A DNA stretch of 47,548 nucleotides, from assembly GCA_012145005.1 (NCBI GenBank), contig GCA_012145005.1_3029.1; one strand, written 5' to 3'. Of the stretch, positions 14,006 to 21,804 are shown one piece after another. The DNA is from a phage. Both the position numbers and the translations under genes were made by a program. The notes below the pieces were generated by a model. It did not search any database and was not told where the DNA came from. It worked only from the letters and a program-made list of their open reading frames with translations. The first letter of the stretch is position 1; every line of letters begins with the position of its first letter.

Positions 14006-14034
14006 AAAGGGGCCCTAGAGGTCCCCTTTTTATT
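14006..14034 (+). terminator. stem-loop with T-tract
   Basis: AAAGGGG...CCCCTTTT followed by TATTT. Confidence 0.6.
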
Positions 14035-14042
14035 TCAAAAAT

Positions 14043-14065
14043 TTTTTCACAAAACGGTTTACAAG
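14043..14065 (+). repeat. 23-nt promoter-cassette segment repeated at 40319-40341
   Basis: TTTTTCACAAAACGGTTTACAAG identical at both sites. Confidence 0.7.
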
Positions 14066-14086
14066 CATAAAGCTTTATGGTACTAT
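14057..14086 (+). promoter_or_regulatory. T4-type early promoter
   Basis: GTTTAC, 17 bp, TACTAT; shares segments with promoters at 15499 and 40333. Confidence 0.65.
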
Positions 14087-14123: not shown

Positions 14124-15092
14124 ATGAAAACTGTAACTATCAATAAGGGTATCTACTTCGGTAAAGAAATCTCTGGAACTTTTGAGCTCTTAGGCGAATG
14201 GTTCCCAGATAATGCTCCGGTAGATGCACAAGGAGATGGTAAAGTTTTTGTTGAAATTGACGGTAAACGTCGCGGTGTTTGGGTTTACAAATCAGATATT
14301 TCATATGATGGTGTAAAAGTTGAAGAAGTTAAAGAATCATATGAAGATATGAAAACCCGCATTAATAAAAGATTTAATGTTATGGGAATGATGACGAATG
14401 GTATTATTAATGGAAATATTCGTTCATTAATTATCTCTGGCGCAGCAGGTATTGGTAAAACGTATTCTTTAGATAAAGCTTTAAATAAAGCAAATGATAT
14501 TGGATACATTGAATATAAAAGCATTAATGGTAAAATCTCTGGTATTGGTCTTTATGAGCAGCTTTGGAATAATCGTGAAGAGAATTCTGTCCTTTTGATT
14601 GATGATGTGGATGTTTTCTCTGATATGGACATTCTTAATCTTCTAAAAGCCGCTCTGGACACTGGAGAGACCCGTAAAGTCTGCTGGAGTACTGCGTCTT
14701 CTTACTTAGAAGAAAAAGGCATTGACCGTGAGTTTGAATTTAAAGGAACGATTGTTTTTATCACAAACGTTGACATTGACCGCGAATTAGACCGTGGTAC
14801 TAAACTTGCTCCACATTTACAAGCATTGGTGTCCCGCTCAGTTTATTTGGATTTGGGTGTTCACACTAATGAAGAAATTATGGTCAGGGTTGAAGATGTT
14901 ATTCTTTCAACCGACATGATGCAAAAGCGCGGTCTTTCTGATGAAGAAACTTATAAAGCATTATCATGGATGAAAGTTAATGTTAATCGTTTACGCAATG
15001 TTTCACTGCGTACTGCTCTTTATCTTGCTGACTTTATTATGACCGACAAAAACGGTTGGGAAGAAATTGCTGAGGTTACTCTTCTAAAATAA
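14124..15092 (+). CDS. AAA+ ATPase-like protein
   Basis: Walker A ISGAAGIGKT, Walker B VLLIDDVD, sensor-1-like IVFITN; about 100-aa N-terminal domain. Confidence 0.55.
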   Translation: MKTVTINKGIYFGKEISGTFELLGEWFPDNAPVDAQGDGKVFVEIDGKRRGVWVYKSDISYDGVKVEEVKESYEDMKTRINKRFNVMGMMTNGIINGNIRSLIISGAAGIGKTYSLDKALNKANDIGYIEYKSINGKISGIGLYEQLWNNREENSVLLIDDVDVFSDMDILNLLKAALDTGETRKVCWSTASSYLEEKGIDREFEFKGTIVFITNVDIDRELDRGTKLAPHLQALVSRSVYLDLGVHTNEEIMVRVEDVILSTDMMQKRGLSDEETYKALSWMKVNVNRLRNVSLRTALYLADFIMTDKNGWEEIAEVTLLK

Positions 15093-16554: not shown

Positions 16555-17445
16555 ATGTCAGTAGTAATTAATAATGTCAATGCAGTAATTAAATCATTAG
16601 TTAATAAAAAAATGATGAATGAATGGACTGTACTTCGTCGTGGAGAGCCAGATAAATTTTTTCATAGATTTAACCCAACTTTGGATTTGAATGTTATCGA
16701 CAAAGATGTTCATGCTGAAATTTTAGATAAGTTTAAAGTTGATATTGGATTTGGATTAGAAAAACATTTACAGCGAACAAATGGATCTGGAATGAGTTTA
16801 TCTAATCGCATTATGAAAGCCCTTAATAAAATTGGAGCGTTGTCTCGTATTAATGCGAGTGAAATTCTTCGTAATTATAATAAAGGATATGACCTTTATG
16901 GTCGACTAATGCCGAAGTTATCATTTGACCAAATGATTGCAGATTTGTGGGAAAATCAGCGACGATTATTAGCATTAGGCGCTCGATTGGCTAAAGGTCT
17001 AGATAAACAAATGATTTTTAAGACCAATAATACAGAAGACCTTAAATGCTTTAAATTTAGTATTCGCGGAGATGATTATTACATCAGAGCTCACTCTACA
17101 GATTATGTTAATATGGGACATCATCTCTGTTTAGCTTTTGAAGTTTTAAAAGAAGCTGGAACATTAGAATATTCATCTGGTGCAAAATGCCCTATTGGTT
17201 CAAGTTGTATTTTAATTTATCGCCCGGATGAATCTAGTTCAACTAAATTGCCTACAAAACCTGTACCAGTTCGTAGTAACGAAAAACATTCTGAACAAAT
17301 TGATTATTTTAATAAGCAAATTGAAGAGCTGAATATTTCTATTCAACAATATGATGATGAAATTTTCAGACTATCTGGACTGAGTAGTAAAGCTAAATCT
17401 GAGCGTGAAAAGTTAATTAAAATTGTTGATTTACTTAAATCTTAA
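16555..17445 (+). CDS. coiled-coil-tailed protein, tandem paralog family member 1
   Basis: start at MSVVINN after GAGGAAAA; C-terminal heptad-rich region. Confidence 0.5.
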   Translation: MSVVINNVNAVIKSLVNKKMMNEWTVLRRGEPDKFFHRFNPTLDLNVIDKDVHAEILDKFKVDIGFGLEKHLQRTNGSGMSLSNRIMKALNKIGALSRINASEILRNYNKGYDLYGRLMPKLSFDQMIADLWENQRRLLALGARLAKGLDKQMIFKTNNTEDLKCFKFSIRGDDYYIRAHSTDYVNMGHHLCLAFEVLKEAGTLEYSSGAKCPIGSSCILIYRPDESSSTKLPTKPVPVRSNEKHSEQIDYFNKQIEELNISIQQYDDEIFRLSGLSSKAKSEREKLIKIVDLLKS

Positions 17446-17453
17446 GGAATACC

Positions 17454-18482
17454 ATGAAAACTCGTTCTCAAATTGAAGATATGGTTCGTAATGCCAGCTA
17501 TACTCGTGATGCTATGACATTTTTGTGTGAAAATAATTTAGACCTTGATAAAGTTAATTGTTCCATTCATGCCTTTAAACATCTGAACAGCAGCGAATGG
17601 GTGCGTAATTTTAGCGAAGCGGGGTATATTACACAAATGACGGCTCGTGAGCAGCTCACCGATTTCTGTAAAACTATTGATTATAAAAATCCTCTATTTG
17701 TTCAAGGCGTTGGTCAAAGTAAGGTTGATTTATCATCTGGATTTTTCAATCCAAATCATTATCGTATTGAATGGAGATTTATTGCTCTGTTCCGTAGACA
17801 ATTAAAGCAAATTTTATCAACTGCGAGTCGATTAAAAGGTTCTGATATTAACTTAAAGAACCTGAAATTTGATGGTTATACTCTTCAGATGGAAGTAAGA
17901 CCATTAAAAGAAAATAACAGAACCGCACGAATTAGCTTTAAACCTAATACAAAAAATTCTCTTTCAATTTGCGAATGCCTTAAATCGCAGTTGACAGAAG
18001 CATTTAAGTATATGGATGTTGTTGCTGCTGTTCAGTCTAAGATTTCACAACATTTCGAACGATTTAAATTAGACACAACAACATATGAACTTGATATGAT
18101 CGTTTCATTTAAATACGATTTTTTGAGAAAGGACGAAGTCACGCAAGAGAAAAAGCAGGAAGTGCAAGATAACTTAAATTTAAATTTATTCAATTACTCA
18201 TCAAACGATCCTAAATTTTGGATGTATAGCTCAAGCAATATAGATGCATGTAAACTTAATAAAGTGAGTTTTCTTCCTACTGAAAATTCAAATTTTAAAC
18301 CTGTAGAAAAATGGCACGCTGACGCGATTGAGAAGTCTCTTAAGGCAGTAGATGATGAACTCGTTAAAGCGACCAATGAAGTGCTAGAAGCTGAAAAGGT
18401 GTTAGAACAAGCTCAGTCAAGGGTTCAAAATCTGACAAAGCAACGTTCTAAACTGAACAATGCACTAAATGCACTGAACTAG
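17454..18482 (+). CDS. coiled-coil-tailed protein, tandem paralog family member 2
   Basis: N-term MKTRSQIEDM; C-terminal coiled coil. Confidence 0.5.
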   Translation: MKTRSQIEDMVRNASYTRDAMTFLCENNLDLDKVNCSIHAFKHLNSSEWVRNFSEAGYITQMTAREQLTDFCKTIDYKNPLFVQGVGQSKVDLSSGFFNPNHYRIEWRFIALFRRQLKQILSTASRLKGSDINLKNLKFDGYTLQMEVRPLKENNRTARISFKPNTKNSLSICECLKSQLTEAFKYMDVVAAVQSKISQHFERFKLDTTTYELDMIVSFKYDFLRKDEVTQEKKQEVQDNLNLNLFNYSSNDPKFWMYSSSNIDACKLNKVSFLPTENSNFKPVEKWHADAIEKSLKAVDDELVKATNEVLEAEKVLEQAQSRVQNLTKQRSKLNNALNALN

Positions 18483-18511
18483 TTTACTTTGCCACAAGGA
18501 TGTGGTATAAT
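18482..18511 (+). promoter_or_regulatory. T4-type early promoter
   Basis: GTTTAC, 17 bp, TATAAT. Confidence 0.65.
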
Positions 18512-18539
18512 GTTCTTACTTTCTACTGAGGAGATTAAT

Positions 18540-19541
18540 ATGACTCGTAACGAATATATCAAATCATTCAATAGTGTTATTGATGATAAAGCTATACCGA
18601 TGTTTGGTCAAAATAGCGTTATTTCTATTATCAATCAATGGCTCAATAGTGTTGATGCAAGTATTGTTTCTTCTACTAAATTTATTCATGAAATTCGTAA
18701 AATTTCTAGCCGTGTAGATAAAGATGTTATCAAAAAAACTTTTAAAGGGTCTCATCTTCTTTCATACTTAGTCAACAGAGATATTCTTAGTAAATTTGGG
18801 AAAGAAATTAAACGAACTAAAGATGTAGTAGGATATAATTGGTTCGGTGATGTTAATTCTTATCATCTTAATAATAAAGAAGACCCTGAGAATATTTTTA
18901 CTCGTCGTTGGATTAGTAATTTCAGACTTTTCAAAGGACAGATTCTAAAATCAGCTTCTAAATTATGTTATGGCGATTATCGTCAAATTCATCCTTTGGC
19001 TTCTGATATGATTATCATAAAAGAATATGAACTTGATAAAAATAAAGTATCTATTTTTGTGAATTATGGATTTTTTACACCAGAAACTAACCAAAAGAAC
19101 ATTAATAAATTTTTCTCAATTGCTAGCACTATAACTCGTCAATTAGAAACCGCATTACTTTGTATGGAAACAGTAGAAAATATTCATACGTATCCTTTTA
19201 AGAATATATGCGGTTGGGAAGGATATAAAATTGTAGTTAGTCTTCGTGAAGTGAAATGTGCTTATTCACTAACTGATAAAGAAATTTACCAACAAAAACG
19301 TGAAGAAATTGTGAATACTCCTAAAGAAGAAACTACACTTGAGGAACTAATGGATAATCTTGACGATTCGCCTGAACCAGTAGAAATTCGTCCAGAAGTT
19401 ATTGCACTAGAAAAAGCTTATAAAGAAGCTCTAGAAATTTCTAATAAAGCACAGAAAGAATATGAGCAGGCTAAAAGGATTTGGGAAGAATCTGTTAATC
19501 GTCTGGATCGTCTTGAACAAGCTTTACAATTAATTAAGTAA
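18540..19541 (+). CDS. coiled-coil-tailed protein, tandem paralog family member 3
   Basis: track ORF 18489 trimmed to ATG 18540 (extension overlaps promoter); C-terminal coiled coil. Confidence 0.5.
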   Translation: MTRNEYIKSFNSVIDDKAIPMFGQNSVISIINQWLNSVDASIVSSTKFIHEIRKISSRVDKDVIKKTFKGSHLLSYLVNRDILSKFGKEIKRTKDVVGYNWFGDVNSYHLNNKEDPENIFTRRWISNFRLFKGQILKSASKLCYGDYRQIHPLASDMIIIKEYELDKNKVSIFVNYGFFTPETNQKNINKFFSIASTITRQLETALLCMETVENIHTYPFKNICGWEGYKIVVSLREVKCAYSLTDKEIYQQKREEIVNTPKEETTLEELMDNLDDSPEPVEIRPEVIALEKAYKEALEISNKAQKEYEQAKRIWEESVNRLDRLEQALQLIK

Positions 19542-19593
19542 TTTAAAGCCAAGGATGGCTCGGAGTATAAATCATTAACTAAGTGAGAAGAAC

Positions 19594-20523
19594 ATGAAAA
19601 CTCGTAAACATTATATTGATTATTTTGACAGTCTTATTACTAAACATCGTAATTATCAGATCGGGCACAGAGCAGTAATCAATAATATTCTTCGTGATTT
19701 CCTTCAATATGTTGGCCAGGAAAATCATATCTGTAAAGATACTCAAAACGCTTATTCTCATTCGTTAGGCAATTTGCTTCAATGGTTTAAACGTTCTCGT
19801 CTGTTATCTTCTACTGTAGCTAGTGATAACATTAAAAACTTTATGAAGCCGAGCTTTATTAAATCTGAGACATCTATAACCGATTTGGTTGAATTTACTA
19901 TTGTTAACGATGTTAAAAAGACTCATTTGGCTGATTGGTTTTCTACCATTCCTGAAACTAAATTTGCTGATAAATTCGCCTGTCAATTCAATGACCAAGT
20001 GAATATGCTTTTTAAGCATGCTCGCAAACTGTTTACCGCGGGTGATGACCGTACAAATACAGTTCATGTTAAGGACTGGGTTATTGCTGATGAAGTAACA
20101 CACAAGCCAGGTGGTTCATCAGTATTAATTAATATCCAGGTTCCTTATTATTACTCACGTAATCTCGGCACCATGACAGCTAGAGAAATTAATAAGCACA
20201 ACAAAACTATTCGTTCGTTGTCTTATAAACTCCGCATGATGTTAAAAATTATGGACGTAGTGGAAATGTATGACGAAACCGAAGATAATGGTTCAATGTT
20301 ATACAGTTCACGCATTCTAATTAAACTGAAGAACCCTAATACATATAAGACAGTTGTAAAAGAGCCTAAAGTAGAAAAGGTTGATAATCTGAGTGAAGAA
20401 CGTGAATATCTCAATGCCCGTTTGATTGAAGTTGAAGCCCAAATTACAGAACACACCAAATTGTTAAAAGCTCTTAATGCAAAAGCAAATGGTTTACGTA
20501 ATGCTATTGAGGTATTGAAATGA
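19594..20523 (+). CDS. coiled-coil-tailed protein, tandem paralog family member 4
   Basis: N-term MKTRKHYIDYF parallels member 2; C-terminal coiled coil. Confidence 0.5.
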   Translation: MKTRKHYIDYFDSLITKHRNYQIGHRAVINNILRDFLQYVGQENHICKDTQNAYSHSLGNLLQWFKRSRLLSSTVASDNIKNFMKPSFIKSETSITDLVEFTIVNDVKKTHLADWFSTIPETKFADKFACQFNDQVNMLFKHARKLFTAGDDRTNTVHVKDWVIADEVTHKPGGSSVLINIQVPYYYSRNLGTMTAREINKHNKTIRSLSYKLRMMLKIMDVVEMYDETEDNGSMLYSSRILIKLKNPNTYKTVVKEPKVEKVDNLSEEREYLNARLIEVEAQITEHTKLLKALNAKANGLRNAIEVLK

Positions 20524-20909
20524 AAAAGCGTTTATTAGAAGACATTGCAGCTTCAAGTAATTCCAGTTTAATTAAAATTATTATGGCTGGTGAGGAAGAT
20601 GATATGGAAATGCGTGGAAAGATTCACGGCTGCGACGATTTAGATTTTAAACCTCCAGCATGGGATGCTATTATGGCTATGGTTGAACGACGTGAAAGAG
20701 CTTCTAAAAACGTTCCTAATTGCCCTGAATGCGGTACTGAACAAGTTCAGTTGATTAACTGGCGTAAACCAGAGCTTGAATATAAATGCCGTCAATGTAA
20801 ACATAAATTCAGTAAGCATGCTCCGGAAATGGTTAAATTGCCTGACTCTACTGAGTTCTTTAAAGAACTTGTGAGTGTTCAACCAATGCCTAATAATATT
20901 TTGGATTAA
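20520..20909 (+). CDS. zinc-ribbon protein
   Basis: CPECG ... CRQC four-cysteine zinc ribbon. Confidence 0.45.
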
Positions 20910-21155: not shown

Positions 21156-21419
21156 ATGTTTAAAGTATATGGTTATGATAGCAACATTCATAAATGTGTG
21201 TATTGCGATAATGCAAAACGTCTTTTGACCGTGAAGAAACAGCCGTTTGAATTTATCAACATTATGCCGGAAAAAGGTGTTTTTGATGATGAGAAAATTG
21301 CTGAGCTTCTGACTAAACTAGGTCGTGATACTCAAATCGGCTTGACGATGCCTCAAGTATTTGCTCCTGATGGAAGTCATATTGGTGGATTTGACCAACT
21401 GCGAGAATATTTTAAATGA
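21156..21419 (+). CDS. nrdC: thioredoxin/glutaredoxin NrdC
   Basis: 87 aa; CVYC active site; MFKVYGYDSNIHKCVYCDNAKRLL matches T4 NrdC. Confidence 0.9.
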   Translation: MFKVYGYDSNIHKCVYCDNAKRLLTVKKQPFEFINIMPEKGVFDDEKIAELLTKLGRDTQIGLTMPQVFAPDGSHIGGFDQLREYFK

Positions 21420-21631
21420 TGCTCGAAGGAACTGACTATATTCATGATTACCGCGGAAGCGCGGTATATGTAGGTGATGAAGTTGCAGTTTATTATGGGT
21501 ATGGAACTTTGATGACAGCCAAGGTTATTCAAATTAAAAATAATCGTGCTAAACTCGAAGTTTATTATTCTAATGGTGAAAAGTCTATTTCTAAGTGGAA
21601 ATACGGCGATTGTATGGTTAAATTGGGGTAA
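21416..21631 (+). CDS. hypothetical protein
   Basis: ORF track; ATGA coupling to nrdC. Confidence 0.4.
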   Translation: MMLEGTDYIHDYRGSAVYVGDEVAVYYGYGTLMTAKVIQIKNNRAKLEVYYSNGEKSISKWKYGDCMVKLG

Positions 21632-21633
21632 AT

Positions 21634-21804
21634 ATGATTTACGATATTAATGTATCACGAGCTCCGTCAATGGTTACTATTCCAGCCGAAGAACTAGATC
21701 GTCTTCAGAAAATTGAAGAACTTCTTTGGGAAATTGAATGTGACCTGCCATCAGGACTAGAATCCTGGATTGATGATGAAGAACTTAATAAATTGCGAAA
21801 TTAA
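21634..21804 (+). CDS. small hypothetical acidic protein (56 aa)
   Basis: below track cutoff; fills intergenic gap. Confidence 0.3.
   Translation: MIYDINVSRAPSMVTIPAEELDRLQKIEELLWEIECDLPSGLESWIDDEELNKLRN

Follow-up and report, generated by a model that had tools for sequence, protein, structure and literature searches.

We analysed a 47,548-nucleotide (nt) stretch of phage DNA (GenBank assembly GCA_012145005.1, contig GCA_012145005.1_3029.1; hereafter the window), a segment of a Tequatrovirus (T4-like) genome in the orientation of early transcription, and found that four consecutive genes at positions 16,555–20,523 are, by sequence, the nrdC.6-nrdC.5-nrdC.4-nrdC.3 block of this genus. They are best explained as ancient tandem duplicates of one early gene specific to the Straboviridae. 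The four products are non-essential early accessory proteins, and we consider it fairly probable that they inhibit the immune proteins which the host directs against phages, in a stoichiometric manner. It was already known that all four are open reading frames (ORFs) of T4 and that one of them has a published counter-defence role. What is new is that NrdC.3, NrdC.4, NrdC.5 and probably NrdC.6 make up one superfamily with a defined architecture, split over three Pfam/PHROG families. The genes and a putative promoter are as follows.

16,555–17,445, plus strand: nrdC.6 orthologue (ORF), 296 amino acids (aa), start MSVVINNV; PHROG 2257, homologues with Pfam PF26899
17,454–18,482, plus strand: nrdC.5 orthologue (ORF), 342 aa, start MKTRSQIE; Pfam DUF7235 (PF23882), PHROG 2351
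18,482–18,511, plus strand: putative T4 early-type promoter, a consensus match (GTTTAC, 17 nt, TGgTATAAT) directly upstream of nrdC.4
18,540–19,541, plus strand: nrdC.4 orthologue (ORF), 333 aa, start MTRNEYI; PHROG 1435, homologues with Pfam PF26897
19,594–20,523, plus strand: nrdC.3 orthologue (ORF), 309 aa, start MKTRKHYI; PHROG 1435, paralogue of nrdC.4

The gene order in annotated relatives and in T4 is nrdC.10,.9,.8,.7,.6,.5,.4,.3,.2,.1, nrdC, 49.x, pin and 49, and the four genes are therefore nrdC.6,.5,.4 and.3; the position of the block, between nrdC.7 and nrdC.2 or nrdC, is conserved in an order matching that of T4. The 5 kb around them showed 96% DNA identity to many Escherichia and Shigella T4-like phages, with matches in 742 phage records, and the aa identity to T4 was about 98% for NrdC.6 (aligned part), 92% for NrdC.5, 95% for NrdC.4 and 62% for NrdC.3. 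The original prediction, made from the sequence alone, had described four consecutive genes for proteins of 296–342 aa, two beginning with MKTR (here nrdC.5 and nrdC.3) and a third with MTRNEY (nrdC.4), all of which proved accurate. Its statement that none could be assigned to a characterised T4 protein no longer holds, as the T4 orthologues of all four have been identified.

Profile searches agreed with these assignments. The NrdC.5 orthologue matched DUF7235 over its full length (378.8 bits against a cut-off of 30, E = 3e-113, residues 1–342 on profile positions 1–307), and this model found no match in the NrdC.6, NrdC.4 and NrdC.3 orthologues. PHROG 1435 matched NrdC.4 (E = 8e-166) and NrdC.3 (E = 2e-116) over the full profile length, as PHROG 2257 did NrdC.6 (E = 2e-152); precomputed annotations give PF26897 on all homologues of NrdC.4 and PF26899 on homologues of NrdC.6. 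On the basis of the DNA conservation in the 742 records and of ratios of nonsynonymous to synonymous substitution (dN/dS) of 0.03–0.34, the four ORFs are real genes. Their starts are backed by Shine-Dalgarno sequences, with GAGG before the nrdC.6 ATG and GAGGAG just upstream of nrdC.4. Only short antisense ORFs were found in the region, and an Rfam scan of it returned no match.

In pairwise BLASTP among the four proteins, only NrdC.4 and NrdC.3 were significantly similar (E = 1e-5, 25% identity over 231 residues). We then built family alignments (fam3 to fam6) from database homologues and 14 related loci and compared them by hhalign. The results showed that fam4 aligned with fam3 at a probability of 97.7% (E = 2e-12) and fam5 with fam4 at 87% (E = 4e-6) over 150 collinear columns. 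Against the merged fam3, fam4 and fam5, fam6 gave a weak alignment (E = 0.002, probability 13%), which placed NrdC.6 residues 83–199 on NrdC.4 residues 61–210. An exhaustive HMMER scan found a bridge member, the distant, single-copy gp057 of Klebsiella phage F48, whose start MTRNEV resembles NrdC.4 and whose end TTQRGKLLRAIQALK resembles NrdC.5; its profile (famK) aligned over nearly the full length, tail included, with fam4 (E = 4e-9) and fam5 (E = 4e-7). In addition, a motif in the helix-helix region recurs in the four proteins (TASRLKGSD, SASKLCYGD, GARLAKGLD and HARKLFTAGDD). From these profiles NrdC.5, NrdC.4 and NrdC.3 can securely be regarded as one diverged family, to which NrdC.6 probably belongs according to its structure model. 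The predicted tandem paralogy is thus linked by profiles for three members and by structure for NrdC.6, with BLASTP significant for the one pair.

At the DNA level, the sole trace of paralogy was a match of 17/19 nt between nrdC.5 (17,447–17,465) and nrdC.3 (19,587–19,605), covering the ribosome-binding site region and the first four codons (MKTR). A search for DNA repeats between the paralogues that could serve as recombination substrate found only short matches of at most 23 nt, and a profile hidden Markov model (HMM) scan of the window detected no further family members.

AlphaFold2 (AF2) models of NrdC.4 (predicted local distance difference test, pLDDT, 83) and NrdC.6 (pLDDT 78) contain the same elements in identical order. 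From the N-terminus, both run through a helical domain, a small β element and three helices, then through a long helix set between two β-hairpins, and finally through a disordered linker into the long terminal helix. The DSSP strings of the two models agreed at 70% of the hhalign columns, compared with 19–59% at shifts of at least 5. Foldseek searches against BFVD (E < 1e-3) gave significant targets for both NrdC.4 (18) and NrdC.6 (11). Of these, seven were common to both, and 7/8 of the NrdC.6 targets beyond its own family were also NrdC.4 targets. The seven are uncharacterised proteins of about 300–335 aa from diverse Straboviridae, namely Pectobacterium phage PM2, Enterobacter phage IME523, Acinetobacter phages Acj9, Acj61 and fHyAci03, Klebsiella phage Mineola and Yersinia phage fHe-Yen9-01. 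The architecture that best explains these data for all four proteins is an N-terminal helical domain, a central α/β domain (three helices, ββ, a long helix, ββ), a disordered linker rich in proline and charged residues, and an amphipathic heptad helix of about 50 residues that ends in a leucine-zipper-like 14-mer.

Three family profiles were searched against the PDB sequences without finding a relative, and structure comparison gave no enzymatic clue. Pfam, NCBIfam and PADLOC scans returned nothing informative beyond DUF7235, the only hit of the PADLOC defence-system HMMs being BrxC at E = 0.009, a chance-level coiled-coil match. Together with BrxC, the chance-level coiled-coil or sub-threshold matches to DUF4164, V-SNARE, CENP-F, PgrA and the integrase SAM-like domain were discounted. 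The last of these concerns NrdC.3 residues 30–86, which matched, below threshold, the SAM-like domain by which tyrosine recombinases bind core sites (E = 0.1 with Pfam; with NCBIfam, E = 0.002 and 17 bits, where the cut-off is 279); the match probably reflects no more than a helical bundle. A gpU-like tail terminator or tail completion fold was also rejected, as its score lay below homology level and it covered about 100/333 residues; gpU-like proteins differ from the four-gene family in expression timing and dispensability.

The predicted C-terminal tails, described as roughly 50-residue heptad-rich, charged segments, were confirmed in all four proteins.

17,281–17,442, plus strand: NrdC.6 helical tail, residues 243–296; AF2 helices 243–272 and 278–295, heptad z = 4.4, terminal motif
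18,318–18,479, plus strand: NrdC.5 heptad tail, about residues 289–342; heptad z = 5.8, terminal motif, weak coiled-coil-type Pfam matches at 289–341
19,392–19,538, plus strand: NrdC.4 helical tail, residues 285–333; AF2 helix 285–332, heptad z = 2.2
20,380–20,520, plus strand: NrdC.3 heptad tail, about residues 263–309; heptad z = 5.4, terminal motif

The tails are about 48–53 residues long and heptad-periodic, and 31–39% of their residues are charged, compared with 24–27% in the bodies. When the last 49 residues of each protein were compared with 2000 shuffles, the periodicity was significant for NrdC.6, NrdC.5 and NrdC.3 (p < 0.001) and for NrdC.4 (p = 0.03), and the heptad register counted from the C-terminus was identical in 4/4 proteins. 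Hydrophobic heptad periodicity in a long helix, as expected of a coiled coil, was found throughout the range of z from 2.2 to 5.8, the long helix being modelled by AF2 for NrdC.4 and NrdC.6; it is continuous in NrdC.4 and takes a helix-break-helix form in NrdC.6. The extreme C-terminal motif L-x-x-[AIV]-[LIVM]-x-x-[LI]-[KN] is present in 4/4 tails. Scanning the 195 ORFs of at least 60 aa in the window with the strict form, which has L at the eighth position, matched only NrdC.6, NrdC.5 and NrdC.3; NrdC.4 has I there and fits only the relaxed form, as judged by eye. A K/E-P-V motif at the junction of linker and tail is common to the four proteins. The charged C-terminus of NrdC.8 did not match the tail HMM.

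When whole tails of different families were compared, they were no more similar than heptad-class-preserving shuffles, except for fam5 and fam3. For the last 14 residues, the true alignment outscored all 35 other in-register window pairs in 5/6 family pairs. We therefore dropped the notion of a shared 50-residue tail module, since the similarity between families consists of a generic heptad pattern and a shared terminal 14-mer. Within families, the tail was the most conserved region of fam4, fam5 and fam6, and in fam3 it reached 0.85 against 0.87 for the N-terminal region; mean pairwise identity was 0.59–0.85 for the tails and 0.48–0.66 for the α/β parts. The picture of variable bodies on a shared tail holds in so far as a coiled-coil-type tail is conserved, but the bodies are not unrelated modules: like the tails, they diverged from a single ancestor, and the fold is the same. 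Bodies and tails have thus been inherited together, with the strongest shared constraint on the tail end.

In the T4 reference (NC_000866; L002 12067–12894), nrdC.6 carries a 1-nt deletion relative to window position ~17,282, within the tail, and encodes a 275-aa protein that lacks the coiled-coil tail, which is still intact in the next frame. In a recent annotation of a T4 stock, nrdC.6 has 891 nt (296 aa). The deletion is either a sequencing error or a strain-specific frameshift.

Among 1.84 billion proteins, an exhaustive profile search recovered no more than 10 cluster representatives, and at the sequence level the family is fast-evolving and confined to T4-like phages. Copy number at the syntenic site, which lies between nrdC.10/nrdC.11 and nrdC, is 1–4 across the Straboviridae, a distribution at one locus that is also new. 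Tequatrovirus has four copies. Nine loci of other Tevenvirinae (L008–L016) have three, lacking nrdC.3 and with an nrdC.5-like gene that is 24–29% identical, and Marfavirus F48 has one. Acinetobacter phage Acj61 has two, the adjacent p120 and p121, which show no detectable sequence similarity to the window families and were recognised by Foldseek matches and by heptad tails of their own. Acj61 also carries adjacent genes for a nicotinamide phosphoribosyltransferase and a ribose-phosphate pyrophosphokinase (L019 1229–3938), a NARP2-like NAD+ reconstitution pair, so that such a pair and two structural homologues of the NrdC.3–NrdC.6 family occur in one phage.

Within Tequatrovirus, nrdC.3 falls into three allele classes with >90%, 74–79% and 60–62% identity to the allele of the window, and the T4 and T6 genes belong to the third, unlike the window's. 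The divergence is concentrated in one segment of the gene.

19,700–20,480, plus strand: nrdC.3 cassette-like hypervariable segment (central α/β domain and linker), 48–78% DNA identity to T4, with at least 90% in the flanks

The flanks of this segment are 95–100% identical to T4 DNA up to about nt 19,700 and 97% identical over the last 45 nt of the gene, and the body is 30–65% identical between alleles. A body of low identity between near-identical flanks points to cassette-like allele replacement, and this putative cassette structure of nrdC.3 has, like the family's spread, not been described before. Rearrangements were found as well. A natural deletion in phage ACG-C40 (L017 4805–5216) begins near codon 72 of nrdC.5, reaches the final ~70 codons of nrdC.3 and removes nrdC.4 wholly; the array is therefore dispensable in nature. 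The metagenomic P0056 has an nrdC.5::nrdC.3 hybrid ORF and no nrdC.4, and nrdC.6 of Shigella phage Sf25 (P0123) contains an internal tandem duplication of 82 aa, giving 378 aa.

We compared the window genes with six Tequatrovirus loci and obtained dN/dS values of 0.15–0.23 for nrdC.5, 0.11–0.23 for nrdC.4, 0.14–0.34 for nrdC.3 and 0.03–0.16 for nrdC.6, against 0–0.10 for nrdC.10, nrdC and gene 49. Such values indicate evolution that is relaxed or, locally, diversifying. Close nrdC.5 alleles have clusters of variability at residues 31–45, 196–210 and 226–255, and residues 61–195 are nearly invariant. Overall, the variation is dominated by old alleles swapped as cassettes (nrdC.3), plus indels and fusions. 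The word "diversifying" in the original prediction fits these allele cassettes, indels and fusions, but not the gene-wide dN/dS, which stays below 0.35.

The prediction of an anti-defence family is borne out for one member. On E. coli with Dsr1 from ECOR17, a defence protein containing a SIR2 domain, a T4 deletion clone regains the ability to plate when T4 nrdC.5 is expressed (Srikant et al., eLife 2022; PMC9391042). In the same region of T4, nrdC.1 inhibits Septu (bioRxiv 10.1101/2025.11.20.689424) and gp49.2 inhibits OLD (PMC13096335), and nrdC.1–6 have been lost as a block in viable T4 (PMC9825161). The HIDEN-SEQ transposon sequencing study of T4 classes nrdC.3–nrdC.6 as non-essential. We found no paper on the mechanism of NrdC.5 and no anti-defence data for NrdC.3, NrdC.4 or NrdC.6 in the literature, and literature searches with accessions or locus tags gave nothing relevant.

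The window gene at 17,454–18,482 is the orthologue of T4 nrdC.5, with 92% aa identity, a full-length DUF7235 match and the same position. NrdC.4 and NrdC.3 are sequence-detectable paralogues of NrdC.5 and NrdC.6 a structural one, although the three are placed in other Pfam and PHROG families (PF26897, PF26899; PHROGs 1435, 2257). NrdC.1 (anti-Septu), gp49.2 (anti-OLD) and Pin (a Lon inhibitor) lie in the same early block and are likewise early, non-essential and variable between T-even phages, but they are small (80–160 aa) and show no similarity to the NrdC.3–NrdC.6 family. DSAD1 of SPbeta-group phages is reported to neutralise DSR2, a SIR2-type NADase sensor, by direct binding. It differs from NrdC.5 in belonging to Bacillus phages, in targeting DSR2 and not Dsr1, and in having no known coiled-coil tail or tandem paralogues; set beside NrdC.5 by description only, it may be a functional analogue at most.

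As inhibitors of host immunity, the four early-expressed proteins would bind host immune proteins directly and stoichiometrically. The conserved zipper-like tail would oligomerise the protein, giving avidity for oligomeric targets, or would dock on a common partner, and the rapidly evolving head, chiefly its α/β domain and linker, would set target specificity. The NrdC.5 orthologue would then probably neutralise Dsr1-type SIR2 NADases as T4 NrdC.5 does, and NrdC.3, NrdC.4 and NrdC.6 may cover other or variant defence proteins.

Several results weigh against this account. Among the four proteins, functional data are confined to NrdC.5, and they are genetic complementation with the T4 protein, not with the 92%-identical allele of the window. 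The HIDEN-SEQ comparison examined reports no significant fitness change for nrdC.3–nrdC.6 (q = 1.0). The comparison with the six loci gave no gene-wide positive selection, and within the genus NrdC.6 is strongly constrained by purifying selection. As for the family itself, fam6 did not align significantly by hhalign with any other single family (E = 0.05–0.2, probability at most 13%), and the Foldseek TM-scores were only 0.4–0.5. With regard to the proposed oligomerisation by the tails, the AF2 models are monomers, and a count of g-e' charge complementarity, for homo- versus hetero-oligomers, was uninformative. If the T4 reference nrdC.6 truly carries the frameshift, a laboratory phage can lose the tail and stay viable.

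Some of these points would also be expected if only NrdC.5 were a counter-defence protein and NrdC.3, NrdC.4 and NrdC.6 were factors for host takeover or regulation, unconnected with immunity, whose common scaffold binds nucleic acids or ordinary proteins of host or phage. The missing nrdC.3, nrdC.4 and nrdC.6 phenotypes in the HIDEN-SEQ comparison examined, the high conservation of NrdC.6 within the genus and the sub-threshold integrase-type matches of NrdC.3 residues 30–86 are consistent with such a division. However, the block holds three other genes proven as defence inhibitors, all four genes are fully dispensable on K-12, and variable copy number, nrdC.3 cassette replacement and natural deletions are typical of host-range accessory genes; we regard the division as possible but unlikely.

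A further question is whether the four proteins are one family at all. Coiled coils resemble each other and α/β domains are common, so NrdC.6, and perhaps the tails generally, could have come to resemble the others by convergence. The fam6 hhalign scores, the low TM-scores and the full-length tails, which apart from fam5 and fam3 are no closer than shuffles, point in that direction. They are opposed by the collinear secondary-structure elements in two independently predicted models, by seven common full-length Foldseek targets, by the common terminal 14-mer with its register and preceding K/E-P-V linker motif, and by the helix-helix motif of all four proteins. The genes are, moreover, adjacent and of similar size, and we give convergence little credence.

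The same architecture can be read in another way, in which the four proteins are not independent inhibitors but together form a single counter-defence assembly, modular and "multi-headed". The C-terminal zipper would co-assemble the paralogues or dock them on a common hub, the swappable α/β heads, with their weak tail-terminator-like fold, would be decoys or blockers for sensors of phage structural proteins, and exchange of head cassettes would re-target the complex. DSR2 recognises the phage tail tube protein. We judge an assembly of this kind improbable. That the proteins are instead related to virion morphogenesis, being akin to tail terminator or tail completion proteins, is very hard to reconcile with their early promoter, their place in the early region on the early strand, their non-essential nature and the deletion of their genes in natural phages.

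Outside the four genes, the neighbouring region contained the following features.

14,009–14,025: terminator-like hairpin upstream of nrdC.10
14,058–14,086: early-type promoter upstream of nrdC.10
14,124–15,092, plus strand: nrdC.10 orthologue, 322 aa, with a Walker-A-like GAAGIGKT motif; strongly conserved, dN/dS 0.02–0.10
20,520–20,909, plus strand: 129-aa CxxC...CxxC zinc-ribbon protein at the nrdC.2 position, its start overlapping the nrdC.3 stop (ATGA)
21,416–21,804, plus strand: two small ORFs of 71 and 56 aa at the T4 gene 49.3 slot, as in phages NR1 and D5505

The protein at the nrdC.2 position (129 aa here, 104 aa in T4) showed 60–78% identity in 3/6 Tequatrovirus loci, T4 included, and 99–100% in the other 3/6. 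With flanking DNA at least 97% identical, this position is a second cassette-like hypervariable gene. The two-ORF 49.3 slot is a further variable slot and adjoins the known anti-OLD gene 49.2.

For inhibitors of host immunity as the preferred account of the block, these results have several implications. Few phage countermeasures to the SIR2 defence protein Dsr1 are known, and NrdC.5, which is one of them, is placed in a family of four genes in Tequatrovirus and of 1–4 genes across the Straboviridae, whose members have one architecture in common, with a tail that is conserved and a head that can be replaced. NrdC.3, NrdC.4 and NrdC.6 become three immediate candidate inhibitors and good candidates for immune-evasion factors, and three Pfam DUF families may belong together. 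The results suggest that specificity is determined by the α/β head and linker and that the tail is the functional module common to all. They also bear on host-range prediction for therapeutic T4-like phages, among which natural isolates vary in how many copies they carry and in the class of their nrdC.3 allele.

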